Shown: piece by piece, positions 2,733 to 59,184 of the stretch
Layout: every line of letters begins with the position of its first letter
How positions within the stretch are numbered: the first letter of the stretch is position 1
Origin: Armatimonadota bacterium
GTDB lineage: Bacteria; Armatimonadota; UBA5829
DNA: 64,000 nt
Direction of reading: 5' to 3'
Assembly (NCBI GenBank): GCA_026392045.1
Contig: JAPLCU010000041.1
Location: 84 to 64,083, forward strand
Notes under the pieces: model-generated
What the model was told of the DNA's origin: nothing
Seen by the model: the letters and a program-made list of their open reading frames with translations, nothing else
Database searches by the model: none
Made by a program: the position numbers and the translations under genes

Positions 2733-4750
2733 CTAAGGCAATGGCACGTTAATGACAGTGTTCACCATTGTAACCGAAGCATACAAGCCCAACGCTCTGC
2801 CTTCCAACGTCGTTATTCTCACTTCGCCGGAGGTAGAGATTTCGACTCCTGCAGAAGCAATAATGGTTCCCACCATGTTAGCGCCAGCGTTGATCGTCGC
2901 TGCACTGCCGACCTGCCAATAGACGTTGTTGGGATTGCCGATGCCGTCCTTGAATATAACCTCGGCAATTAATGGGTCACTTGTGTCGCCCACGGTGAGT
3001 GATGCCCCCATCTGGAAGACCCAGACTGCATTCGGGTCACCCAAAGCGTCGAGCGTTAGAGTTCCCCCTGCCTCTATATTGAACGTGTCTCCCGCGGCTT
3101 TGTAGACGCCAGGGGCGAGGACCAGCCCACTTAGCTCGCCGGAGGCACTTGGATCAGGCCCCGTTGGGGCTAATCCTGCGAGATCGTTCCACGCTTCGAG
3201 CGAGTCGTCAAAGGCCGCCTGTGCTATCGCCATTGTGGCCAAAGTTCCTCCCACAGGAGTACCACCTGGGTGCGCCGGTGGCGGTGCATCAGTGTATATC
3301 CTCCCGGTGACCTCTCCATCAGGTGCACCGTATTCGTCTCCGGTGCTATCGAAGAATGCGACCACCAAAGTAGAAGCAGCCGTGGTTCCAATATCACCAT
3401 CGATGACGGTAAGGATCCCCTCGTTGGTTATCCCGGCACCACCCCCGAAAGCGCCGAAGGAGGCGGCCGATCCAAGGTCTCCTGGTGCTGGACCCGGCGC
3501 GAAATTGGCCGTGACCGTCTTGTCCTCGTCCATCGTGATCGTGGTCGGATTCATTGTGCCGCTCAAATCGCCGCTCCAGCCGACAAAGTGGTAGCCTGCC
3601 GCCGCCGCCGCCGTCAGCCCAATCACAGTTCCATAGTTATACGTCGGCTGATTCAGCGACTTCATCACATCCCCGTTCTCCGCAATTACCGTCAGGGTGT
3701 AGTTGTTGCCAACGATGAATGTGGCGCTGGGTCCGGCGGCAAGCGCTAAATTACCTGCCGCATCGGATGCCGTGTTCGCCGCTATCGAGATTCCCAGCGT
3801 ACCATTGCCGGTGATACTGGAAATCCTTACCGTTCTGGTTGCCGTGCCACTACCGGAAACAGCTACCGTTCCGTTGGCCGTGCCTGTCTTGTTCAGTGTG
3901 ACATTACCCGCCACAAGCGTGACAGTATTAGCGCCGCCGTACGTAATCGTATAGGTTATCGGGCCACTCCTCGTCTGCAATGCCGAGGGAGCGCCGATAC
4001 TGATTGTCGGCCTGGTGTTGTCAACGGTGAACCTGGTGCTGGGTCCGGCGGCAAGCGCTAAGTTACCAGTCGTATCGGATGCCGTGCTCGGCGCTATCGA
4101 GATCCCCAGCGTACCATTGCCGGTGATACTGGAAATCCTTACCGTTCTGGTTGCCGTGCCACTACCGGATACAGCTAACGTTCCGTTGGCCGTGCCTGTC
4201 TTGTTCAGTGTGACATTACCTGCCAGAAGCGTGACAGTATTAGCGCCGCCATACGTAATCGTATAGGTTATCGGGCCATTTCTCGTCTGCAATGCCGAGG
4301 GAGCGCCGATACTGATTGTCGGCCTGGTCACATCATACGTCACCGTATTGTCGGTGGAGGTAGATGCCTTGCTGGCATTACCCATTTGACGTCGTGCGCG
4401 ACACCGGCCGCCAAGTTCGCAATCACCGTACCACTGCCCGTCATGCCGGTGACGGCCACGTTGTATGTCTTACCGGTCCCGGTGACCGTGCGAACCAGTG
4501 TGCCGGGCGCTGTACCGGTCAGGGTGACATCGCCAGCGGCGAAGTCTTTGACCGCCTTGCTGAAGACCACGGTGAAGTTGATCGGCGACGTCCTCGTCGG
4601 GTCGGCTTGGCCGACTTTCTGATTGATGGTGACGGTGGGCTTGACGACCAATTGTGCAGGCACCATTGATGCCCATCCGACTACAGAAACGACCAGAATT
4701 AATAACGTAAGCCCTAAATATGTGGTGTATATGCGCATTTTCTTGTCCAT
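2733..4750 (-). CDS. repeat-containing surface protein with a C-terminal ice-binding-like (DUF3494-type) beta-helix domain; an apparent frameshift near 4385 splits it into ORFs 4340..4750 (signal peptide + repeat 1) and 2733..4385
   Basis: The N-terminal ORF has a signal peptide and a ~100-aa unit resembling the two near-identical tandem ~100-aa repeats in the 550-aa ORF (also visible as a DNA tandem repeat, ~3700-4000 vs ~4010-4300). The C-terminal region shows LGSAASFGAFGGGAGITNEG...GDIG, typical of the ice-binding-like family. Both frames are open over 4340-4385. Confidence 0.55.
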
Positions 4751-5791: not shown

Positions 5792-5908
5792 GTGAGTGGA
5801 TTAGATGATCTGACAAGAGAAGAACTGATAGAGCTGGTTTTGAAGCTACACGAGATACTGCAGGCTCAGCAGCGAGAGATTGCTGAGTTTAGGTCTTTTG
5901 GGATTTGA
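5792..5908 (+). pseudogene. IS66-family transposase (TnpC-like) N-terminal fragment of ~38 codons, truncated where a family-5 hairpin element begins
   Basis: Translation VSGLDDLTREELIELVLKLHEILQAQQREIAEFRSFGI* resembles the leucine-zipper N-terminus of IS66 transposases (L-x-EELIALVL...LFGxKSEK). The stop is created inside the repeat. Confidence 0.4.
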
Positions 5909-5976
5909 GTGGAGCGTCAGCGGAACGGAAATCCCAAAACAAACTGCGGCACAACCAAGAGGAAATCGCGGCAAAC
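5895..5976. repeat. family-5 hairpin element copy 1 (stem TTTTGGGATTT / AAATCCCAAAA plus a conserved 3' tail ...CAACCAAGAGGAAATCGCGGCAAAC)
   Basis: Same element at 46921-47000 and 47298-47373, with compensatory stem changes (TTTCGGG/CCCGAAA). Confidence 0.55.
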
Positions 5977-6130
5977 GGGTCGCTTGAAGGATACGCAGCA
6001 TACCCGAATAATTATATATTTCTTAGATGCTACAGCTTCCGCCCATAAGTCGGCATACGTAACGCCAGGTATCCGCCCACACCAGGGCGGCGCTTCGCGC
6101 CTGGCGTTACTTTGCCGAATGGTCCAAAAT

Positions 6131-8548: not shown

Positions 8549-9564
8549 ATGGGAGTATCCTCTTTGAAATCACTACTCGCACGTTTCTCTGCCTTAAACC
8601 GCGACCTCAAGATTTTGTGGTTCGCGATCTTCTGTTTGTCCTTGGGCTCCGGCATATTCGGCGCTTGCAACAATAACTTTATGACCGAAGTTTTGAAGAT
8701 TAAACCAGGCCAGCTTGGAATTGTTGAATCGATCAGAGAGACGCCCGGTTTTCTGTGCGTTGTGCTGGTGGCGATATTGATGAGCATTGCGGAGCCGCTG
8801 CTTGCATCTATCGGCATGTTTGTATTGGGAATCGGCACGGCTGCGTATGCATCGGTCTGTGGCTTGCCGAGCCTGATAATCTGGTCTTGGGTTGCGAGCC
8901 TGGGTTTTCATGTATGGCAGGCGCTGCAGTCCAGTATGGTTCTAGGATTGGCCGAGGCAGGCAAACAGGGCAAGCGAATGGGGCAGACCACGTGTGTGGC
9001 TAGTCTCGGTGTGATCTGCGGCGCGCTTTTGGTGCGTCACTTTTCCTATGGAGTGTCCTTTTCGAATTGGTTCCTGCTGAGCGGCGCCTGGATGGTGGCT
9101 GGCGCAATCTCGATGATCTTCGTTAGACGCAATATCGGTCACCCAGATAAGCCGAAGTTCGTTTGGAAGCCCAAGTATCGTTTGTATTACATCTTAACCC
9201 TGTTGGAAGGAGGGCGTAAGCAGGTTTTTATAACATTTGCCATATATGCGCTCACCTGGGAGTTTGGGGTCAAGATGGGAACAATAGCCGTGTTAGCGCT
9301 CATCTGCTTTACCTTTCTGCAACCTGCCTCTCGACCTATTTGCAGAAGATAACGGACCCCGAGGATCTCATGCCGACTCTTTCGATGGGTGTATCTTTCA
9401 ACCATACCGCTTCGGTGATCGTGCCTCTTGTCGGCGGGTTATTGTGGGCGAATTTTGGTTATGGCGCAGCGTTTTATGGAGGAGCTGTGTTGGTTGGAAT
9501 ATCAGCGCTAATAGCTACAAAAGTGCCGGTTCATAAGCCCAAAGTGGCTCAGGAGGCTGCATGA
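8549..9564 (+). CDS. MFS-type transporter; apparent frameshift around 9290-9340 (ORFs 8549..9352 and 9340..9564)
   Basis: Two adjacent ORFs of hydrophobic TM helices in shifted frames. The second has only a TTG start and no independent RBS. The end overlaps the next gene by 4 nt. Confidence 0.5.
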
Positions 9565-10835
9565 GCATTCCGAGAGTAGTTATTATCGGCGGCGGCGCAG
9601 CAGGTATGCTTGCGGCCGGCCGCGCTGCCGAGTGCGGCGTGAAAGCTGTGCTCTTGGAAAAGGGACCGATGCTCGGGCGAAAGCTGCGTATTGCCGGAAA
9701 GGGTAGGGGGAACATTACCAACACCGCTGATTTGCCGGAGTTCATCGAGGCGTTTTCTCCTAATGGCAAGTTCCTCTATGGCGTTTTCTCAAGGTTCTTT
9801 CGAGATGATCTTTTGGTGATGCTGCATGATTTGGGCGTGGAGACCAAAGAGGAGCGCGGCGGACGGGTGTTTCCTGTGTCTGACAAGGCATCGGATGTGG
9901 CGGACGCATTTGAGCGCTGGATGGAGGAGCGCGGGGTGAGTGTTAAGCTCAACGCAAGGGTGAAATCTCTGGATATCGCGGGCGCTGATGACGATCACCA
10001 GCGCCCACGCGTGGTTGGCGTTAACCTCTATGGCGGTCGGATGGACGCCGACGCCGTGATAATCGCCACAGGCGGCGTGTCTTACCCTAAGACCGGTTCG
10101 ACAGGCGATGGATACGCGATGGCTCGCGAGGCTGGGCATACGATTGCTGCTCCCAAGCCTGCCTTGTCCGCGCTTGTTACTCAAGAGGAATGGGTAAGGG
10201 GCTTGGCGGGCCTTTCGCTCAAAAATGTTGAAGTGACGCTGCTTATAGAGCCGCCCGGCGCAGATAAGCCTAAGAAAATAGTTTCTGAGTTCGGGGAGAT
10301 GCTTTTCACGCATAACGGAATCTCCGGGCCGATTATCCTCACGCTCAGCCGTAAAGCCGGAACGCTGCTGGGGCAAGGCAAGGTGATGGTCTCGATAGAT
10401 CTCAAGCCTGCGCTGACCAGCGAGCAGCTTCATGAGCGGCTAATTAGAGATTTCAAGCAGAACACATATTATAAGAATTATTTGCATGAGCTGCTGCCGC
10501 GCCTGCTATTGGAACCTTTTGCATCGCTCACGGGCATTGATCACGAGAAGCCGGTGAACTCAATCACGGCTGTCGAACGTGCGAGGGTTGTTGAGCTTCT
10601 CAAGGATTTCAGAGTAACGGTCGCGAAAATGGCTCCGATGGACGAGGCGATTGTCACCCGGGGCGGGGTAAGCATAAAAGAAATAGACCCGCGCACGATG
10701 ATGAGCAAGCTGGTCGATGGCCTTTTCTTTGCCGGTGAAGTGATAGATATCGACGCCGAAACCGGCGGCTATAACCTGCAAGCCGCGTTTTCCACTGGAT
10801 ATATCGCGGGGGAATCTGCGGCGGAGTTTTTGTAG
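9561..10835 (+). CDS. NAD(P)/FAD-dependent oxidoreductase, HI0933/BaiN-like flavoprotein
   Basis: N-terminal VVIIGGGAAGMLAAGRAAECG dinucleotide-binding motif. C-terminal GGYNLQAAFSTG typical of the family. Confidence 0.8.
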   Translation: MSIPRVVIIGGGAAGMLAAGRAAECGVKAVLLEKGPMLGRKLRIAGKGRGNITNTADLPEFIEAFSPNGKFLYGVFSRFFRDDLLVMLHDLGVETKEERGGRVFPVSDKASDVADAFERWMEERGVSVKLNARVKSLDIAGADDDHQRPRVVGVNLYGGRMDADAVIIATGGVSYPKTGSTGDGYAMAREAGHTIAAPKPALSALVTQEEWVRGLAGLSLKNVEVTLLIEPPGADKPKKIVSEFGEMLFTHNGISGPIILTLSRKAGTLLGQGKVMVSIDLKPALTSEQLHERLIRDFKQNTYYKNYLHELLPRLLLEPFASLTGIDHEKPVNSITAVERARVVELLKDFRVTVAKMAPMDEAIVTRGGVSIKEIDPRTMMSKLVDGLFFAGEVIDIDAETGGYNLQAAFSTGYIAGESAAEFL

Positions 10836-11478: not shown

Positions 11479-12363
11479 ATGTATGAACAAATCTCGGGTA
11501 ATATCTGGCGTTCGCGTTTGCTGTTGGTGATGTTTCTGGCGATTTTGATCGGGATAGGTTACGTGTTTTCGCGAGCGTATAATGACCCGTTTATTATGCC
11601 GCTTGCTATTGTGATTGCGGTTGCAACCACCGTCGGCAGCTTCTATTACAGCGATAAGATCGTGATTGCCACTACCGGCGCCCGTGCGGTGGACAAGGAC
11701 GAGTTTCCGCATTATGTAAACTCGGTGGAAGGCATCGCCATCGCTGCAGGGCTGCCGTGCCCGCGGATTTTTGTTATAAATGACCTCGCGCCGAATGCAT
11801 TCGCAACCGGACGAGACCCTGAGCATGCCCTGATATGCGTGACTACGGGCTTGCTGGGCATGATGGACCGCACCGAGCTTGAAGGCGTGATCGGGCATGA
11901 GATGTCGCATATCGAGAATTACGATATTCGATTTATGATGCTGGTGGCGGTATTGGCGGGCTCGATTGCGCTTATGTCGGATTTCTTCTGGCGTATGAGA
12001 TGGTTCAGAAGCAGCAGCCGCGACAGCAACGGAGGCGGGCAGGCGCAGGCGATATTTATGATTATTGGGCTGGTTCTGGCAATACTCGCGCCGCTTTCGG
12101 CTGCATTGGTGCAAGCGTGGATATCTCGGCAGCGAGAATACTTAGCCGATGCCAACGGCGCTCTGTTGACGCGCTTCCCGGAAGGCCTCGCGAACGCTCT
12201 CGAACAGATCGCCGAAGATCCCAACAAGCTTCAATCCGCAAACAAAGCAACTGCGCATCTGTTCATCGCAAACCCTTTGAAAGACCACGGCGGCGCTATG
12301 AACAGCCTCTTCGACACTCACCCGCCAATTGTTGAGAGGGTAAGAAGATTGCGGGAGATGTGA
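11479..12363 (+). CDS. htpX: zinc metalloprotease HtpX (M48 family)
   Basis: HEMSH zinc motif (GHEMSHIENYD). TM segments. C-terminal FDTHPPIVERVRRLREM. Confidence 0.85.
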   Translation: MYEQISGNIWRSRLLLVMFLAILIGIGYVFSRAYNDPFIMPLAIVIAVATTVGSFYYSDKIVIATTGARAVDKDEFPHYVNSVEGIAIAAGLPCPRIFVINDLAPNAFATGRDPEHALICVTTGLLGMMDRTELEGVIGHEMSHIENYDIRFMMLVAVLAGSIALMSDFFWRMRWFRSSSRDSNGGGQAQAIFMIIGLVLAILAPLSAALVQAWISRQREYLADANGALLTRFPEGLANALEQIAEDPNKLQSANKATAHLFIANPLKDHGGAMNSLFDTHPPIVERVRRLREM

Positions 12364-12448
12364 TATAGCAAAAATTATATGTGGGAACGACTGCGACCAC
12401 TGCGCTTCCAGTTCTACGCATTCAAGATTTCTCGCAGCATCAAGAATC

Positions 12449-13241: not shown

Positions 13242-13272
13242 ATTCTTCCTCCCACAAAAAAGGTTATAGTTT

Positions 13273-13573
13273 GTATGCTGCGGGCACGGCTGCCTGCACT
13301 TTGTTGGCAGATTTGCGCGTTCAAGAGTTCCCGCAGCTATTACACAATCAGCCGGTGATAGCTGCGGGAATTGACGTTTGATGAATCTTGCTGCGTTGTC
13401 GCTCATCGCCATTCCCGCAGCATCAAAATCGGCAAACGCCGGAATTGACGAATCCTGAGCGCTTACAGTAAAGTTAGACGTGCCCGCCGTCGTTGGTGTT
13501 CCCGATATTGTATGCTGCGGGCACGGCTGCCTGCACTTTGTTGGCAGATTTGCGCGTTCAAGAGTTCCCGCAG
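13273..13573. repeat. REP-like array, family 1: two identical 64-bp units (13273-13336 and 13510-13573) plus chained GCTGCGGGAA/TTCCCGCAGC hairpins between them
   Basis: Exact 64-bp direct repeat. Inverted-arm pairs at 13329-13376 and 13367-13420. A degenerate arm is also at 12418-12449. Confidence 0.7.
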
Positions 13574-13686
13574 CATCAATTGTTGAGAGGGTAAGAAGAC
13601 TGCGGGAGATGTAGCCGATTTTGTGCTGGTATTGGATTTCCACCACAGCTGCGCCCTGGAACGGATTTCCAGGACGATCTTACATT

Positions 13687-18763: not shown

Positions 18764-18780
18764 TGATATCTCACTCTTGG

Positions 18781-18870
18781 TGCGAATTACATGTCACCCT
18801 GAACTTGTTTCAGGGTCTGCACTTCGATAAATAGATGCTGAATCAAGTTCAGCATGACAGTTTACGCACT
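18781..18870. repeat. family-2 structured palindromic element, copy A: terminal IR AATTACATGTCA/TGACA.. enclosing two hairpins (CCCTGAA-cttgtt-TCAGGG and ATGCTGAA-tcaag-TTCAGCAT)
   Basis: Homologous copy at 33690-33775, with compensatory base changes in both hairpins. Confidence 0.6.
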
Positions 18871-22217: not shown

Positions 22218-22232
22218 CGTATAGCGCAATGC

Positions 22233-22258
22233 GGCTCAGGGGGACCTTCGCCCTCCCC
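22233..22258. repeat. family-3 unit GGCTCAGGGGGACCTTCGCCCTCCCC (reverse orientation relative to 41287-41312)
   Basis: Exact reverse complement of the 26-mer at 41287-41312. Confidence 0.55.
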
Positions 22259-41286: not shown

Positions 41287-41358
41287 GGGGAGGGCGAAGG
41301 TCCCCCTGAGCCGTTTTCCTTCGCAGCTACAAGGCTCGGCGGGAGCCTCGCCCTCCCC
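41287..41358. repeat. family-3 inverted pair (GGGGAGGGCGAAGGTCCCCCTGAGCC ... GGCTCGGCGGGAGCCTCGCCCTCCCC) forming a long hairpin in the 192-bp gap inside a co-directional gene string
   Basis: Two inverted copies of the 26-mer separated by 20 nt. A third copy is at 22233-22258. Confidence 0.6.
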
Positions 41359-44655: not shown

Positions 44656-45747
44656 ATGAAAGTTGGAATTGTGGGGCTGCAGGGCTGCGGCAAGACCACT
44701 TTATTCAGAGCCCTCACCAGGGGCAAAGTTAAAACAGAAGATAGCTACGGCGCATCGAGCGGCAAGCCGAATATTGGCGTTGTCAGCGTACCTGATCGTC
44801 GTGTTGACTATTTCGCGCGCCAGTATAATCCCAAAAAAGCAACTTATGCAAGCATCGAATTTATCGATGGCGCTGCGCAGGTTGCCAAAGACGACGGCAA
44901 GAATAAGTTCGGCTCGGATTTCTTCTCAGATGTCCGGCAAGTGGACATGCTCGTTCATGTTGTTCGCGCCTTCACTTCAAAAACTGGTGACGAACCATCC
45001 CCTATGAATAATATTCAGGCTCTTAATGATGAGTTGGCGCTCTCTGACCTGCAAGTGATCGAAAACCGTATCATGCGCGTGGAAAAGCAGCTTCATGGTG
45101 TCAAAAAGGGCGTAACAACACCCGCAACGCAGGAAATGGATGTATTGGAGCGCCTAAAGACCGCCCTTGAAGAGGGGAAGCCTATGAGCGGCGTTCAGTT
45201 GACTCCAGAGGAAAAGAAGGCAATAAGCAGCTACGATTTCCTTACGCTTAAGGCTATGGTAATCGTGCTTAATATCCCCGAAAGCGAGATTGCTTCTCCT
45301 GGTGAAACTACGCTGAAGTTCAGAGAGTTTTGCGCTGAGGCCGGTTTGCCTGAGAGCGAGCTTTGCGCTGAGGTGGAGATGGAAGTCTCCGAGCTTGATG
45401 ACGAAGAGGAAGCTGAGTTCCTCGAGTCTGTTGGCATAAAAGAGCCGGCTCGCAATGTCTTGATCCGCGAATGCTATAAAGAGCTTGGCCTGATTTCGTT
45501 TATTACAGCAGGCGAGCCGGAAGTGAGAGCGTGGACGCTCAGAGCAGGTTCAAAAGCAGTTGAAGCCGCCGGAACTATTCACTCAGACCTCGCGCGAGGC
45601 TTTATACGCGCTGAAGTTGCAAACTTCAAAGAGATCGAAGCCGTCGGAAGCTGGGAGGCTGCGAAGCAGCAGAATGTAGTGCAGCTAGTCGGCAAAGATC
45701 ATATAATTCAAGATGGCGACGTGATGTATATTCGGTTTAAGGTCTAG
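44656..45747 (+). CDS. ychF: redox-regulated ATPase YchF / OLA1-family GTP-binding protein
   Basis: P-loop GLQGCGKTT. C-terminal TGS-like DGDVMYIRFKV, comparable to the YchF C-terminus. Confidence 0.8.
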   Translation: MKVGIVGLQGCGKTTLFRALTRGKVKTEDSYGASSGKPNIGVVSVPDRRVDYFARQYNPKKATYASIEFIDGAAQVAKDDGKNKFGSDFFSDVRQVDMLVHVVRAFTSKTGDEPSPMNNIQALNDELALSDLQVIENRIMRVEKQLHGVKKGVTTPATQEMDVLERLKTALEEGKPMSGVQLTPEEKKAISSYDFLTLKAMVIVLNIPESEIASPGETTLKFREFCAEAGLPESELCAEVEMEVSELDDEEEAEFLESVGIKEPARNVLIRECYKELGLISFITAGEPEVRAWTLRAGSKAVEAAGTIHSDLARGFIRAEVANFKEIEAVGSWEAAKQQNVVQLVGKDHIIQDGDVMYIRFKV

Positions 45748-45771
45748 AGCCAGGTAACATCTGACCAATGC

Positions 45772-45802
45772 GGGCAGGATTGCAAATCCGCCCAAACGTA
45801 GT
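45772..45802. repeat. family-4 motif GGGCAGGATTGCAAATCCGCCCAAACGTAGT
   Basis: Matches 2329-2360 and 46868-46899. Confidence 0.5.
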
Positions 45803-45890
45803 ATTGCGTGCCGGATCAGAGATTCCGGCCGAACATAGTTCTGCTAGCACGATTCCTGAATTTGACACATCTAGCATGGGGACGTAGAAT

Positions 45891-46859
45891 GTGCTGGAAA
45901 TATTCAATTGCCAGGAGAAGTTATTGATAGTCACGCTAACCCCGAATACTGCGATTGATATCACTTATACGGTTGAGGGCTTCGGCCTTGATCGTGTGCA
46001 TAGGCCCAGTGAGGTGCGCACAGTTGCGGGCGGCAAGGGGATAAATGTCGCACGGGTTCTAAAGACTCTGGGCAACGATGCTATCGCCACCGGGTTTGTG
46101 GGCGGAAAAACGGGTGATTCTATTCTTGAGAAAATTTCCGCTGAGGGATTGTCACACGATTTCGTGCGTGTAAAAGGCGATTCAAGGCTGTGTATTGCCA
46201 TTGTCGATCCGAAAACCGGCACTCAGACAGAAATTAATGAGAATGGCCCAGAGATTTTGGGCGATGAGCTTGCGTCTATGCTGGAGAAGGTCAAAACGCT
46301 CATTGAGGGCCGAAAGTATGTTGTTTTGTGCGGAAGTTGCCCGCCGGGTGTGCCAACCTCGTTTTATGGGGATATCATATCGTTAGCCAAGAAGGCAGGC
46401 GCTGTAACGATATTGGACGCCAGCGGCGCGCACCTGAGTGAAGCTCTAAAATCCGGCCCATATATGGTTAAACCAAATCTCACCGAGCTTGCACAGCTCG
46501 CGGGCAGAGAGATGGTAACTCTTGAGGAAATCGTAGCGAGCGCTAAGAGCCTGAAGCAGTTTGGAGTGAAGATTATGGTGGTCACTATGGGAAAAAGTGG
46601 AGCCGTCGTAACGGACGGCGTTCAAGCGTGGATGGCTGTATCTCCAGAGATTAAGTTCGCCAGCGCTGTAGGCTCCGGCGATTCATTTATGGCTGCGTTT
46701 ATTCACTCGATGGCTGCGGGGCAGACAATGCCGGATGCGCTTACAATGGCGACAGCAGCAGGCGCCGCAAATGCCGCAACCTATGGCGCCGGTTTTTGCT
46801 CGAAGGAAAGCATAATGGATCTTTGCGCTAGTGTTTCGATACAAAAACTGGACTTATGA
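45891..46859 (+). CDS. PfkB-family sugar kinase (1-phosphofructokinase / tagatose-6-phosphate kinase-like)
   Basis: LTPNTAIDITY N-terminus. C-terminal GSGDSFMAAF...ATAAGAANA ribokinase-family motif. Confidence 0.75.
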   Translation: MLEIFNCQEKLLIVTLTPNTAIDITYTVEGFGLDRVHRPSEVRTVAGGKGINVARVLKTLGNDAIATGFVGGKTGDSILEKISAEGLSHDFVRVKGDSRLCIAIVDPKTGTQTEINENGPEILGDELASMLEKVKTLIEGRKYVVLCGSCPPGVPTSFYGDIISLAKKAGAVTILDASGAHLSEALKSGPYMVKPNLTELAQLAGREMVTLEEIVASAKSLKQFGVKIMVVTMGKSGAVVTDGVQAWMAVSPEIKFASAVGSGDSFMAAFIHSMAAGQTMPDALTMATAAGAANAATYGAGFCSKESIMDLCASVSIQKLDL

Positions 46860-46867
46860 GAAACTTT

Positions 46868-47000
46868 CGGGCTGGATTGCAAATCCGCCCGAACTTAGTT
46901 ATTTCGGGAAACCCTCGGTGTTTCGGGATTTGAGTGGAGCGTTAGCGGAACGGAAATCCCGAAATAAACCACGTAACAATCAAGAGGAAATCGCAGCAAA
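46868..47000. repeat. composite repeat: family-4 motif (46868-46899) followed by family-5 hairpin copy 2 (46921-47000)
   Basis: Sequence identity to the copies at 2329/45772 and at 5895/47298. Confidence 0.6.
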
Positions 47001-47018
47001 TACGTCTAATGCATAAGA

Positions 47019-47282
47019 GTGAAATGGAAAAACATTATTGAATCACTGAATGTTATGGCCGAGCATGCTAATGGCGGATGCCGATATGCCGCTTGGAAAG
47101 AGCAAGTGAGAGCTCTGGCAATATGGAACGCGCCAAAGCTCTATGAAAAGATTAGTTATATTCACGCAAATCCGGTTAGGCGAGGGCTGGTCAAACATCC
47201 AGGTGATTGGCTGCATTCGAGCTATAGGTTCTATGAACACGAAGAGCAGGTGTGCTTACCTGTTGTTCCTATAGATTGTTAG
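47019..47282 (+). pseudogene. REP-associated tyrosine transposase (RAYT / IS200-like) C-terminal remnant, flanked by two direct family-5 hairpin elements
   Basis: ...YIHANPVRRGLVKHPGDWLHSSYRFY matches the conserved RAYT C-terminus (YI..NPVK.GLV....DWP.SS). The N-terminal HuH catalytic region is absent. Confidence 0.55.
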
Positions 47283-47297
47283 ATAGTGCGTCCGGAG

Positions 47298-47373
47298 GTT
47301 TCGGGATTTCCATTCCGCCTGCGGCTCCATTCAAATCCCGAAACACCGAACAGCGTAACAACCAACAGGACAC
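47298..47373. repeat. family-5 hairpin element copy 3 (stem GTTTCGGGATTT / AAATCCCGAAAC with a different loop)
   Basis: Same stem and 3' tail (..GTAACAACCAACAGGACACCG) as copies 1 and 2. Confidence 0.55.
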
Positions 47374-47550
47374 CGGTGCAGTCAGGCTCGCTGCCGAAGC
47401 TGCCGGGCCGCGTGACCTGTCGGGCTGTAGGGATACTATGAGCAGATGGCATAACTAACAACGAACTCCGCAGTTGGGCTCTGATCTTGAACAGATACAC
47501 CGTCCACTTATGCCATTACCAACACTCGTGCAATAAAAAGGACTACCACA

Positions 47551-48048
47551 ATGAAAAGAAAAAAATTAGCTATTGGAGCCATTCTGGTTAGTTGTGTTCT
47601 TGTAGCAGCGACAGTCAAAGTCTACTTCAAGACGATCTCCTGTCCACCAAGATCTGACTATGGATTATGTAGAAATAATATTACGGAGGCTGAGTTTAGC
47701 ATTCTTTGTTTTTTAGAAAAGAATGGACGGTTGCCTATCGTTAAAGGAAATGTGGACGACGAAGTATACTCAGCGATCGTGTTTAAACAAATCGCACGTT
47801 GGGACAAGAAATGGGGTTTTAGATATTTTATGAAATGTCCGAAAGACAAGACAGATACAATGACAAGCTATCGCATAAATTCCCAGTTAATGGGTAAATC
47901 GCTCAAAGATATTCCGGAAGATAAGCTTTCTCAGGTAGTTCTGGTATACGAAACAGAGCATGATGGGACCCATAATTTTGTGGGTCACGCTGACGGACAC
48001 ATCCGTAGCGGTCATTGGGATGCAAAAAAACACGCCGTCTCCAAATGA
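47551..48048 (+). CDS. hypothetical membrane-anchored protein (165 aa) with a His-rich C-terminus, AT-rich, in a REP-bounded pocket
   Basis: N-terminal TM (LAIGAILVSCVLVAATV). ...HDGTHNFVGHADGHIRSGHWD. Local GC is clearly below the flanks. Confidence 0.5.
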   Translation: MKRKKLAIGAILVSCVLVAATVKVYFKTISCPPRSDYGLCRNNITEAEFSILCFLEKNGRLPIVKGNVDDEVYSAIVFKQIARWDKKWGFRYFMKCPKDKTDTMTSYRINSQLMGKSLKDIPEDKLSQVVLVYETEHDGTHNFVGHADGHIRSGHWDAKKHAVSK

Positions 48049-48062
48049 ACAGTGTTGAAGAT

Positions 48063-48123
48063 GCTGCGGGAATGGCGGCAAATGATGCTCCTGTAAGATT
48101 AAACAAAGGTCAATTCCCGCAGC
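48063..48123. repeat. family-1 REP unit GCTGCGGGAATGGCG-N32-TCAATTCCCGCAGC
   Basis: Arms identical to the unit at 1-57. Only the loop differs. Confidence 0.6.
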
Positions 48124-48190
48124 TATCAATTCTCTGACGCGCCTCAACTTACTTCCCACTTTGTGCTCTGCGCTGGTATAATATTGTGTT

Positions 48191-50548
48191 ATGGAACAAC
48201 ATACGCTCAAGGTTCTTGAGTTCGACAAAATAATATCGAAGCTTAAAGCTCAGGCTGCTTGCTCTTTGGGGCGGGAAGTTGCTGCGCTTACGTTTCCGAC
48301 CACGGATATTGAAGTTGCGCGGCGTATGCAGAAAGAGACCAGCGAGGCGCGGGCTATTCTTGATTATGAGGGCAATATTCCTCTTGGCGGGCTTACTGAT
48401 ATTCGCAAGTTTGTCGAGCGCTCGTCTGTAGGCTCACTGCTGCAGCCCGAAGAGCTGCTTTCGGTGCAGAGCACGCTTCGCGCCTCTAAGAGATTGGGGC
48501 AGTTTCTTGTAAAGCTTAGAGATAAATATCCGCTGCTTGGCGATCTTGCTAGCGAAATTGATCATTTCGATCACATTGATTCTGCCATTGCCGGCGCTAT
48601 CTCATCAAATGCCGAGGTTATGGATTCAGCCAGCCAGGCGCTTGCTCGCGCCCGTACCGAGCTGCGCAGCGCTCAGTCTCGCATCACTGAGAAGATGAAC
48701 TCTTACCTTCAGGGCAGCTACCGCACGATCATTCAAGACCCCGTCATAACAATTCGCAGCGACCGCTATTGCATTCCCATAAAGGCCGAGCACAGAGGGC
48801 AGTTTCCAGGCATAGTTCACGATGCCAGCACATCCGGCGCAACGTTATTTATCGAACCCGCCGCGGTAGTCGAACTTGGCAACAAGCGCAGGCAGTTGAT
48901 CGTTAAAGAGCGCGAGGAGGTCGAAAAAGTCCTTGCCAGGCTTACCGGCATGATAGGCGAATGTGTTGACCGAATCATGGCGATGCTCAATGTTGTCGGC
49001 ATGATAGATTGCATTGCCGCGCGAGCAAAGCTTGGCATTGCATTTAAGGGCACCGAAGCGTTCCTGAATGACAACGGCCAGATAGAGATTATTTCTGGTC
49101 GGCATCCGCTGCTTACCGGTGAAGTTGTTCCCATAGATATTACTCTCGGAAAAACATTCAACGCGCTACTAATCACCGGCCCTAATACCGGCGGAAAAAC
49201 CGTAAGCCTGAAAACGCTGGGGCTATTTTGTCTTATGGCGGCGAGCGGTCTGCAGATTCCCGCGTCACCTGGCACCGAGCTTGCAATTTATGATAATATC
49301 TACGCTGATATCGGCGACGAGCAGAGCATCGAGCAATCGCTGTCAACCTTTTCTTCTCACCTGAATAATATTGTGCGCATCACGCGCGGCGCTGGCAGCA
49401 ATTCGCTTGTTTTGATGGACGAAGTCGGGGCAGGCACGGATCCCGCCGAGGGCGCAGCGCTCGCGAAGGCTATTCTCGATTTTCTTCTTGCGAAGGGCGC
49501 CAAGATAGTTGCAACCACCCATTACGGCGAGCTTAAAGAATTTGCGTATATGCGCGAGGGTGTTGAAAACGCGTCTGTTGAGTTTGACCCCATTAGCCTG
49601 CGCCCAACATATCGCCTGATGATAGGCGTGCCCGGCAGCAGCAACGCATTTGCCATCGCGGCGCGCCTGGGGCTTGATTCAGCAATTACCGATGCCGCAA
49701 AAACCAATCTTTCAACTCATACCGAATCCAGCGATGAGCTTATCAGGCAGATAGAGGAAAGTCATAGGGTTGTATCAGAGCAGCGAAAAATTGCCGAGCA
49801 GAAATCCGCAGAGGCTGAAGAACTCAGAAATCGCTATCAAAAGCAATTGGGCGGCTTAGACAGCGCCCGGGAGCGAGCTGAAAGGCAGGCAAAATCGCGC
49901 GCTGAATCTGTTGTGGAATCATATTCACAGCGGCTTGATGAGACCCTCGAAGCGCTCGCAGCCCAGAAACCTGATACAAAACGCGCTCAAGACCTCAAGA
50001 AAAAGGTCGAGAAGCTCGTTGAAAAGATGGAAGAGAATGTCGTGAAGCCTATGACCAAGGAGAACCGCGACGAGGCGTTTCCTAAAGGTACGGCATTTTC
50101 GGTGGGTGCGCGTGTAGGAATAGCAAATGTTAATCATGATGGTGAAATCGCCGAATCGCCCCAGGGTGGGAAGGTGGTTGTGATGGTTGGCAATATGCGC
50201 GTTACTGTGCCCGTTTCAGCTCTTAGGAAGCCCCAGGGCGCTTCGGCGCGCGAGCTAAGATCGCAGCCAAACGAATCTCGCATCAGTTTCGAAAAGGCCA
50301 AAGATTTCAAACAAGAAATCCATCTTAGAGGTATGCGGGTTGAGGCGGCGTTGGAAGTTTTGGACAAGTATATGGACGATGCCATGGCTGCGGGCGCAGA
50401 ATCGATGCGAATAGTTCATGGCAAAGGCACCGGTCAGCTTCGGCTGGCGGTTTGGGAGTTCCTCAAGCATCACCTGGGAGTGCTTTCGTATAAAATCGGA
50501 GAACAAGACGAAGGCGGTTTTGGCGTTACTATCGTTCAGATGAAATAA
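48191..50548 (+). CDS. mutS2: endonuclease MutS2 (with C-terminal Smr domain)
   Basis: MutS domain V Walker motifs. C-terminal Smr (IHLRGMRVEAALEVLDKYMDDAMAAG..IVHGKGTG). Confidence 0.9.
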   Translation: MEQHTLKVLEFDKIISKLKAQAACSLGREVAALTFPTTDIEVARRMQKETSEARAILDYEGNIPLGGLTDIRKFVERSSVGSLLQPEELLSVQSTLRASKRLGQFLVKLRDKYPLLGDLASEIDHFDHIDSAIAGAISSNAEVMDSASQALARARTELRSAQSRITEKMNSYLQGSYRTIIQDPVITIRSDRYCIPIKAEHRGQFPGIVHDASTSGATLFIEPAAVVELGNKRRQLIVKEREEVEKVLARLTGMIGECVDRIMAMLNVVGMIDCIAARAKLGIAFKGTEAFLNDNGQIEIISGRHPLLTGEVVPIDITLGKTFNALLITGPNTGGKTVSLKTLGLFCLMAASGLQIPASPGTELAIYDNIYADIGDEQSIEQSLSTFSSHLNNIVRITRGAGSNSLVLMDEVGAGTDPAEGAALAKAILDFLLAKGAKIVATTHYGELKEFAYMREGVENASVEFDPISLRPTYRLMIGVPGSSNAFAIAARLGLDSAITDAAKTNLSTHTESSDELIRQIEESHRVVSEQRKIAEQKSAEAEELRNRYQKQLGGLDSARERAERQAKSRAESVVESYSQRLDETLEALAAQKPDTKRAQDLKKKVEKLVEKMEENVVKPMTKENRDEAFPKGTAFSVGARVGIANVNHDGEIAESPQGGKVVVMVGNMRVTVPVSALRKPQGASARELRSQPNESRISFEKAKDFKQEIHLRGMRVEAALEVLDKYMDDAMAAGAESMRIVHGKGTGQLRLAVWEFLKHHLGVLSYKIGEQDEGGFGVTIVQMK

Positions 50549-59062: not shown

Positions 59063-59184
59063 GGATAAAGTGAGAATGATATACTTCGGGACTGTTTTTC
59101 GTCCCGAAGGGTGAGGTTCTCAAGCGTGCTTCGGGGCGAAGGGAGCCCGCGAAGCATAGTTCGCCTGATTAGCAGACTTTATCC
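59063..59184. repeat. structured palindromic element: outer stem GGATAAAGT/ACTTTATCC enclosing two hairpins (CTTCGGGAC-tgtttttc-GTCCCGAAG ; TGCTTCGGGG-cgaaggga-GCCCGCGAAGCA)
   Basis: First hairpin is identical (inverted) to 2472-2497. Architecture parallels family 2. Confidence 0.45.

Follow-up and report, generated by a model that had tools for sequence, protein, structure and literature searches.

What is the short open reading frame (ORF) at positions 47019 to 47282 of a 64-kb stretch of an Armatimonadota genome (contig JAPLCU010000041.1; the whole stretch of 64,000 nucleotides is referred to as the window), and how is it related to the hairpins on either side of it? The first-pass annotation of this DNA had described a degraded REP-associated tyrosine transposase (RAYT) gene within a REPtron-like set of cognate repetitive extragenic palindromic (REP) hairpins under structural constraint. 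This core reading is supported by profile hidden Markov models (HMMs), by about 20 relatives flanked in the same way, and by the dispersal of the repeat. The locus is very probably a decayed REPtron, that is, a Y1-HuH transposase unit in which a RAYT gene of ~530 nucleotides (nt) stands between two inverted cognate REP hairpins, and which belongs to a family of Armatimonadota-like bacteria. The evidence consists of the homology of the protein, an internal deletion in its gene, the inverted orientation of the hairpins, their recurrence at about 20 genes, their high copy number in relatives, and compensatory changes in their stem. The features concerned are the following.

46915..46965, plus strand: left REP hairpin, hereafter A (79.5 bits on the covariance model of the family)
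46966..47018, plus strand: native RAYT leader (with AAGAGGAAA and GTCTAAT), which aligns collinearly with that of the full-length gene of locus L110
47019..47282, plus strand: RAYT gene with an internal deletion (87 amino acids (aa), GTG start), six native codons fused in frame to residues ~97-177 of a 177-aa protein
47034..47039, plus strand: deletion junction between codons 6 and 7 (ATT and ATT), placed by comparison with P0013/P0001 and the L110, L003, and L093 proteins
47157..47159, plus strand: TAT codon of Tyr47 in SYIHANPV, aligned with the Tyr of DYIYINPV in 4ER8
47259..47297, minus strand: leader-like tail in inverted orientation (minus-strand sequence CTAACAATCTATAGGAACAACAGG), overlapping the last codons and stop of the ORF
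47298..47350, minus strand: right REP hairpin, hereafter B, inverted relative to A (arms TTTCGGGATTT/AAATCCCGAAA at 47299-47309/47333-47343; 69.7 bits)
47351..47385, plus strand: second, direct leader-like tail after B (CAGCGTAACAACCAACAGGACACCGGTGCAGTC), from repeat alignments
5890..5979, plus strand: solo copy of the left end, hereafter C, with a degenerate foot TAGGTC, the hairpin, and ~40 nt of leader (71.1 bits)

The ORF was borne out as annotated, with 87 aa and a GTG start, and so was its identification as the C-terminal block of a RAYT, which the annotation itself had proposed to challenge by an HMM comparison. Residues 15-67 match positions 94-146 of the 146-position NCBIfam profile REP_Tyr_transpos (NF047646; E=2.2e-9, 37.4 bits). 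The score lies below the curated cut-off of this profile (80 bits) because only positions 94-146 are present, and a Pfam search with the 87-aa ORF gave no match. Full-length relatives from loci L001 and L003 (copy L003a) and a composite of the relatives P0013 and P0001 pass the cut-off with scores of 81.3, 87.0, and 90.6 bits, and L003b, a relative shortened at its 5' end, falls just below it with 79.2 bits. The same relatives all fail the model of IS200-type TnpA (NF033573), reaching 17-20 bits against a cut-off of 55. In a comparison of the family profile with solved structures, the best match was Escherichia coli TnpA-REP (PDB 4ER8, E=1.4e-8), which spans the HuH region and the Tyr region; in the latter, query residues 114-158 align with chain residues 93-137 and YIHANPV falls on DYIYINPV. 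To judge from the HMM scores and the arrangement, the lineage of this protein belongs to the RAYT family, and the window ORF is a fragment of one of its members.

A large protein search retrieved 13 relatives, all short or partial, and the closest homologues carry an Armatimonadetes name. Two of these relatives, from one Armatimonadetes metagenome-assembled genome (MAG), allowed the full protein to be reconstructed: P0013, which reads MKWKNIDIGAAYYY...MPDHLHLIV...KKQGDIESLNVMAEHANGGCQYAAWKE, and P0001, which reads ...GDIESLNVMAEHANGG...PVVPIDC and is identical to the window product at 79 of 81 residues over the retained part. The window ORF reads MKWKNI followed directly by IESLNVMAEHANGG, so that about 90 codons (D7 to D96 of the P0013 and P0001 composite) are gone at the junction. 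Only a C-terminal block without the HuH motif had been annotated at first. The HuH motif is indeed absent, the corresponding MPDHLHL, MPDHVHLL, or MPTHVHLL of relatives sitting within the segment deleted here, but the supposed N-terminal truncation did not hold: the first six codons (V/M-KWKNI) and the 54-nt leader represent the native 5' end of the gene, and the lesion is therefore an internal in-frame deletion. The leader and GTG start align with those of L110 at a pairwise score of 39, compared with a mean of 6.0 for shuffled sequences (standard deviation 3.1, maximum 17); this comparison rests on L110, the leaders of L108, L109, L001, L113, and L112 being too diverged to align. An alternative reading of the tail after hairpin A as mid-gene coding sequence, from a tblastn extension upstream to 46983 through a stop codon, was rejected because the L110 leader and start score 39 and the mid-gene sequence 0. 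A global MAFFT alignment of the window with the full-length genes did not split at the deletion and was uninformative.

The Tyr motif is kept, as SYIHANPV at ORF residues 46-53, and its tyrosine is an invariant column of the family alignment (Y137); the catalytic tyrosine of E. coli TnpA-REP is taken here to be Y115. With a Tyr motif and no HuH site, the window product would be catalytically dead. A tblastn search over the 64-kb window found no other RAYT-like sequence. As a separate observation, the HuH segment has been lost in three independent decayed copies (P0003; L003 at 9306-9362 and 9992-10219; the window at 47034-47039), with 3' breakpoints all near protein residue 95-100. The stretch from the HuH to the Tyr motif may contain a hot spot, or the pattern may reflect the bias of a C-terminal query.

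The three hairpins of the window, their coordinates, and the paired substitution in C were confirmed by two approaches. An arm search gave 8 matches with at most one mismatch where 1.7 were expected, a number reached by none of 100 shuffles, and the covariance model, run unfiltered over the entire window, returned exactly A, C, and B, with the next score at 18.9 bits. One pattern match, at 2425-2449, is an unrelated hairpin and was set aside. All three copies are intergenic, A lying 54 nt 5' of the start codon and B 16 nt 3' of the stop. Hairpin A is composed of the foot TCGGTG (46915-46920), the 5' arm TTTCGGGATTT (46921-46931), the apical part GAGTGGAGCGTTAGCGGAACGG (46932-46953), and the 3' arm AAATCCCGAAA (46954-46964). 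The arms of C are TTTTGGGATTT/AAATCCCAAAA, at 5896-5906/5929-5939, in which a double substitution turns a C-G into a T-A pair; this copy was recovered in the direct-repeat search at 87% identity over 84 nt, and no RAYT coding sequence follows it. The stem comprises 12 base pairs (bp), and the apical part of 21-23 nt folds in its turn into an internal loop, a 2-bp helix, a second internal loop, and a helix of 2-3 bp.

Two statements of the first-pass annotation about these hairpins had to be reversed. A and B, described as direct copies, are inverted: positions 46915-46940 pair with 47324-47349 at 96% complementarity (TCGGTGTTTCGGGATTTGAGTGGAGC / GCTCCATTCAAATCCCGAAACACCGA), and B scores 69.7 bits on the minus strand versus 28.7 on the plus strand. 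The loops, described as unrelated, differ at 1 of 22 positions between A and C, and that of B is their reverse complement, with few substitutions and a length difference of 1 nt relative to the shared apical sequence. The apical part of B is likewise the reverse complement of the family consensus and contains a 3-bp mini-stem. The element as a whole is asymmetric: the foot (C/T)CGGTG lies directly 5' of the stem, and on the other side come CA-AR-CCG, which complements the foot imperfectly, and a tail. This tail of ~40 nt (CGTAACAAYCAA.AGGA...) is the only part that is direct in A, B, and C.

Hairpin B carries a double foot, with a perfect foot complement CACCGAA at 47344-47350 and an imperfect foot CCGGAG on the other side. 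The inverted tail copy at 47259-47297 means that the terminal inverted repeat of the unit reaches ~90 nt, and the direct tail at 47351-47385 is probably left over from a second unit alongside or from a fused inverted REP dimer. Since tail copies stand on both sides of B, the interval 47259-47372 forms one long imperfect palindrome, as also seen in its DNA fold (z=-3.1). The window holds no REPIN in the sense of two inverted REPs that, with a short spacer, make one long hairpin: A and B are ~330 nt apart with the gene between them, C is a singlet, and the palindrome at B is one hairpin with two feet. A search of Rfam over 45500-48500 at E<=1 gave no match. Integron attC sites were considered and rejected from the sequence, as neither the GTTRRRY/RYYYAAC core nor a cassette or integrase context is present. 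Beside copy C, a short ORF at 5792-5902 (VSGLDDLTREELIELVLKLHEILQAQQREIAEFRSFGI) runs into the hairpin and resembles the coiled-coil N-terminus of a transposase; its reading as an IS66 leucine-zipper remnant was dropped, Pfam giving no significant match.

The association between gene and hairpin recurs in related loci. A protein-guided scan of metagenome contigs gave 58 loci, 30 of them at 51% identity or more. A perfect family palindrome of at least 8 bp lies within ~150 nt upstream in 19 of 21 full-length relatives, usually after GGTG, and ~30-150 nt downstream in 16 of the 21, usually followed by CACC; the remaining relatives are mostly cut by contig ends or have a mutated arm. The resulting arrangement is cGGTG-GTTTCGGGA... 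upstream and ...TCCCGAAAC-CACC downstream, and the loci L001, L003, and L093 are flanked by hairpins in the same way. Wherever the loop or the feet reveal orientation, the flanking copies are inverted, as in L122, with ggtGTTTCGGGAACTTGTTCCCGAAAC upstream and GTTTCGGGAACAAGTTCCCGAAACacc downstream. An exception was noted in L115 and L116, where hairpins ~100 nt either side of the RAYT gene are direct and have the foot TGATG. The foot and the basal stem GTTTCGGGA/TCCCGAAAC (9 bp) are constant across proteins that are 53-71% identical, and the apical part varies from a 4-nt loop to ~70 nt. The consensus (C/T)CG(G/T)TG stands directly 5' of GTTTCGGGA in 69 oriented copies, and also upstream of RAYT genes. 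On the sequence, the window locus fits the REPtron arrangement described for RAYTs (PMC6006769, PMC3733652).

The abundance of the hairpin was assessed by scanning 185,579 species genomes, one genome each, for the exact pattern TTTCGGGATTT-N20-50-AAATCCCGAAA, for which about one chance match was estimated. At least 104 blocks of 8 kb were obtained. Nearly all belong to a small number of MAGs that are Armatimonadota or unclassified, and some, in Niastella and others, are probably chance matches. The DNA of the window is none of these 104 blocks, as determined by megablast. The genome-wide count that had been proposed as a check was thus made in relatives, where the blocks listed contain at least 268 family hairpins in MAG CAWGNL01 (280 kb of blocks) and at least 79 in MAG JAUSEB01 (313 kb). 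A tblastn search with the RAYT of the window lineage over the same blocks, with the metagenome loci L108-L165 standing outside this count, found two full-length genes, both in CAWGNL01 and none in JAUSEB01, and a few stubs. Solo hairpins therefore outnumber RAYT genes by ~100:1 in the blocks listed. Many copies of JAUSEB01 form inverted doublets with a second, shorter hairpin and are REPIN-like (e.g., L032, L034, and L068). Tandem arrays resembling clusters of bacterial interspersed mosaic elements (BIMEs) were observed in L015 (2796-4936; 12 x 178 nt, each unit with two hairpin types) and in L080 (6807-7824; five hairpin copies with 254/212-nt spacing). Given this high copy number, the arrays, and the doublets in relatives, the hairpin behaves as a REP family.

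In CAWGNL01, the gene is repeated as well. Three RAYT units of this MAG (L003 3183-3843, L003 9357-9980, and L093 ~1390-2050 on the minus strand) are 96-99% identical, and their homology stops precisely at a left-hand TTCGGTG and a right-hand CACCGAA, beyond which the flanks are unrelated. The frameshifted unit L003b has stubs of another copy on its two sides, one N-terminal and one C-terminal, and two further loci contain the leader and ~19-codon stubs of a second subfamily. Such sharp limits would suggest transposition at the level of the unit, and they could also stem from recombination between REPs. RAYTs are usually single-copy, with few duplicates at 95% identity or more (PMC5581495). 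A near-identical multicopy RAYT is therefore atypical, and places the family nearer to intermediates between insertion sequences (ISs) and REPtrons (class 3 TnpA-Y1, PMC6006769) or to TIRtrons (PMC3733652).

The first-pass annotation had further proposed that the stem is kept by selection on its structure. Compensatory pairs across the family agree with this proposal, but the covariation cited for it amounts to a single pair in one copy. Among all hairpins in the blocks, stem position 2 is T-A in 331, A-T in 46, and broken in 2; positions 1 and 7 each show 6 C-G pairs, and position 4 shows T-G three times and T-A once (the copy C of the window). Double stem changes far outnumber single changes in these position-wise tables, although the stem is near-invariant within the loop family of the window. 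One pair of the apical 2-bp helix, a helix that figured as a pair in no search pattern, is G-C in 17, A-U in 15, G-U in 2, and unpaired in none of the distinct sequences; in the window it is G-C in A and C and A-T in B. The named structure has 94.3% of cells paired, versus 30-65% when the partner is slid, and its covariation score of 0.097 was reached by 1 of 500 shuffles. The compensatory changes support selection on structure through what appear to be few independent events. A basal stem that is constant across divergent proteins points to recognition of sequence as well as of shape.

Recognition, cleavage, mobility, and the state of the rest of the host genome we infer by analogy with E. 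coli TnpA-REP and IS200/IS605 TnpA (PMC6006769). An intact enzyme of this lineage would bind the hairpin on single-stranded DNA, presumably recognising the foot (C/T)CGGTG and the basal stem GTTTCGGGA/TCCCGAAAC, and would cut and rejoin beside the foot by means of the HuH metal site and the Tyr of YIHANPV. In this way solo hairpins would come to be scattered over intergenic regions; in some genomes at least, the unit as a whole appears to have spread too. The window gene, having lost ~90 codons including the HuH motif, could not be expected to cut DNA, and A, B, and C would be non-autonomous. Any movement of theirs would depend on an intact RAYT from another part of the genome, a condition that the first-pass annotation had reasonably set; failing that, they would be passive relics.

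Several points weigh against the interpretation of the locus as a decayed REPtron. Copies in the host were counted over 64 kb, and of the three found there two are at the locus itself. The foot is CGGTG, whereas described REPs carry the tetranucleotide GT[AG]G in this place, 5' of the hairpin (PMC6006769, PMC3733652). CAWGNL01 has at least three near-identical copies of the RAYT unit, which makes the unit harder to tell from an insertion sequence. Most hairpin copies were gathered by an exact-stem pattern, so that the invariance of the stem is partly by construction, and the compensatory changes are inherited by subfamilies and thus represent few independent events, not dozens. Finally, binding and cleavage by this particular family are postulated by analogy.

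The unit might instead be the remnant of an ordinary autonomous IS200-type element, in which the hairpin-gene-hairpin segment of ~660 nt is the transposon and the window copy an internal-deletion derivative and precursor of a miniature inverted-repeat transposable element, and not a domesticated single-copy RAYT. This alternative is unlikely, and it overlaps the preferred explanation more than it excludes it. It draws on the exact ends and unrelated flanks of the three CAWGNL01 units, on the presence of one of them inside another decayed copy, and on P0013 and P0001 both being cut at contig ends, as expected of a multicopy gene; the unit is also about the size of IS200. The protein, however, passes the RAYT model and fails the IS200 model, recombination between REPs could also give sharp boundaries, and the excess of solo hairpins over genes is the behaviour of REPs. 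In addition, the ends here are one hairpin in inverted orientation, whereas those of IS200/IS605 elements are distinct and on the same strand (PMC6006769).

Two other explanations concern the parts of the locus separately. It is improbable that the 87-aa product has been kept as a truncated protein, for instance to regulate by binding the hairpins or to inhibit an intact RAYT in a dominant-negative manner. The in-frame deletion with native start and leader speaks for such a role, but an in-frame outcome has a one-in-three chance; the mere 2 differences from P0001 over the 81 retained residues are more simply explained by a recent deletion. In P0003, too, the HuH motif has been lost through an internal deletion that keeps the frame, but the query biased the search towards C-terminal fragments, no second contig with the same deletion was found among the 13 relatives of the protein search, and relatives decay in many shapes, including N-terminal stubs (L033 and L039), the frameshifted L003b, and C-terminal stubs. 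Still more improbable, and the least credible of the explanations considered, is that the hairpins are host regulatory elements, terminators or stabilisers of mRNA, that lie beside a transposase fragment by coincidence. Hairpin A does follow the stop codon of a pfkB-family gene by 56 nt, and effects of REPs on the stability of mRNA and on termination are known (PMC6006769). However, the same hairpin stands on both sides of ~20 independent RAYT genes, no T-run terminator tail follows A or B (a weak 6-pair site inside B being all that was seen), and Rfam gave no match; a secondary role in the host may exist, but it would leave the association with RAYTs unexplained.

Going beyond the decayed REPtron, a tentative extension, rather less likely to be right than wrong, is that the RAYT was not domesticated in this Armatimonadota lineage. 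The hairpin-gene-hairpin unit would then be an active IS with hairpin terminal inverted repeats that copies itself and also seeds hundreds of solo REPs with interchangeable apical modules, making it an extant intermediate that links IS200/IS605 elements to REPtrons. On this view, the window holds a nascent non-autonomous element, derived by an in-frame deletion that left the ends intact.

Comparison with known systems places the preferred reading, the decayed REPtron, in context. With the E. coli REPtron (TnpA-REP, 4ER8, and its REP/BIME repeats) the family shares the protein family, a gene between inverted cognate hairpins, a short unpaired foot 5' of the hairpin, and many dispersed intergenic copies, including clusters and tandem arrays such as that of L015 (12 x 178 nt). 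It differs in the foot, (C/T)CGGTG versus GT[AG]G, and in combining a basal stem GTTTCGGGA that stays constant over proteins 53-71% identical with an apical part ranging from a 4-nt loop to ~70 nt. The protein is also divergent, just above the cut-off, with WKEQVRAL where E. coli has WQPRFWEH; moreover, the enzyme of the window is truncated, and at least one genome has several copies of the unit. TIRtrons (Di Nocera et al. 2013, PMC3733652) likewise consist of a RAYT-like gene (TIRYT) with longer, self-complementary terminal inverted repeats that may overlap the 3' end of the gene, and have moderately abundant solo repeat copies. The corresponding inverted repeat here is foot, hairpin, and ~40-nt tail, ~90 nt in all, a likeness of repeat arrangement. 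In contrast to TIRtrons, the core of the repeat is a classical REP-like hairpin with hundreds of copies in related genomes, and the GGGGWSAS motif is absent.

Class 3 TnpA-Y1 (Quentin et al. 2018, PMC6006769) has been described as resembling both ISs and REPtrons. Atypical hairpins, a foot other than GTAG, a high hairpin copy number, and several close gene copies per genome are common to that class and the present family, but the signature of class 3 is NHVH / YV..EQ with the foot CnGA, whereas (D/T)H(L/V/I)H / YIHANP is found here. To judge from these motifs, the family is closer to subclasses 2.2 and 2.5 of that study. IS200 resembles the unit in its small size, single Y1-HuH gene, subterminal hairpins, and decay by internal deletion; the low score on the IS200 model (17-20 bits versus 55), the ends formed by inverted copies of one hairpin, and the massive amplification of solo hairpins set the unit apart.

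REP/RAYT systems have so far been studied almost only in Proteobacteria, and a limited literature search found no paper on such systems in Armatimonadota. The family offers a clean natural dataset on what a RAYT reads in its hairpin, its apical part being freely exchanged over a constant foot and basal stem, and its multicopy units bear on whether RAYTs are domesticated genes or still transposons. The window locus, as an ordinary decayed copy, is of use mainly as a way into the family. In annotation, ORF 47019-47282 is best labelled a pseudogene, with the hairpins entered as a repeat family.

The surroundings of the unit hold two further features.

Stop codon at 46859, upstream neighbour of the ORF: pfkB-family kinase gene (Pfam PfkB, E=1e-56)
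46901..46914, plus strand: ATTTCGGGAAACCC, which corresponds to the 5' half of the short REP type TTTCGGGAAACCCTTTTCCCGAAA of the same family and directly adjoins the foot of A

The distance of 56 nt between the pfkB stop codon and hairpin A includes this second feature, which is probably the remnant of an older REP. The short REP type TTTCGGGAAACCCTTTTCCCGAAA is seen intact in MAG CAWGNL01 and in locus L052 and has 21 copies among the loop classes. The position of ATTTCGGGAAACCC next to the foot of A suggests that the unit landed in, or recombined with, an older REP. Downstream of the RAYT ORF are a 165-aa ORF and then a 785-aa ORF at 48191-50548, which we take, from our own reading of the sequence, to be mutS2. 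A second dispersed hairpin family, CGGGCWGGATTGCAAATCCGCCCRAAC, occurs at 45771-45802, 46868-46899, and 2333-2349 (3 matches versus 0.2 expected; DNA fold -13 kcal/mol, z=-5.3). It occurs directly 3' of the stop codons of pfkB and of an ORF ending at 45747 that by eye we presume to be ychF-like. In MAG CAWGNL01, 8 blocks contain the exact 17-mer. Although the copy at 46868-46899 falls within the region first annotated, it does not belong to the RAYT element.

An inverted pair of a composite repeat of ~80 nt (GAATTACATGTCACCCTGAACTTGTTTCAGGGTC...) at 18771-18859 and 33694-33771 matches three blocks of JAUSEB01 at 86-91%. With the CGGGCWGGATTGCAAATCCGCCCRAAC hairpin, it makes two repeat families, besides the REP hairpin, that the window shares with the related MAGs; the assignment of the window to its phylum rests on these and on the Armatimonadetes names of the closest homologues. 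Two inverted copies of the hairpin CTTCGGGACGAAAAACAGTCCCGAAG, at 2472-2502 and 59079-59109, are 97% complementary; their arm TTCGGGA resembles the basal stem of the REP (covariance model 18.9 bits, E ~0.009), and this hairpin may be a distant relative of the REP hairpin or a coincidence. A G-rich repeat GGGGAGGGCGAAGGTCCCCCTGAGCC at 22232-22258, 41287-41313, and 41333-41358 forms both a 100% complementary distant pair and a local palindrome. A repeat family ending in ...GTCAATTCCCGCAGCT / GTTCAAGAGTTCCCGCAGC has direct and inverted copies at 1-96, 12326-12438, 13271-13612, and 48095-48128, one of them just upstream of the 785-aa ORF at 48191. A 300-nt tandem duplication, 94% identical and with a spacing of 312 nt, was observed at 3704-4315.

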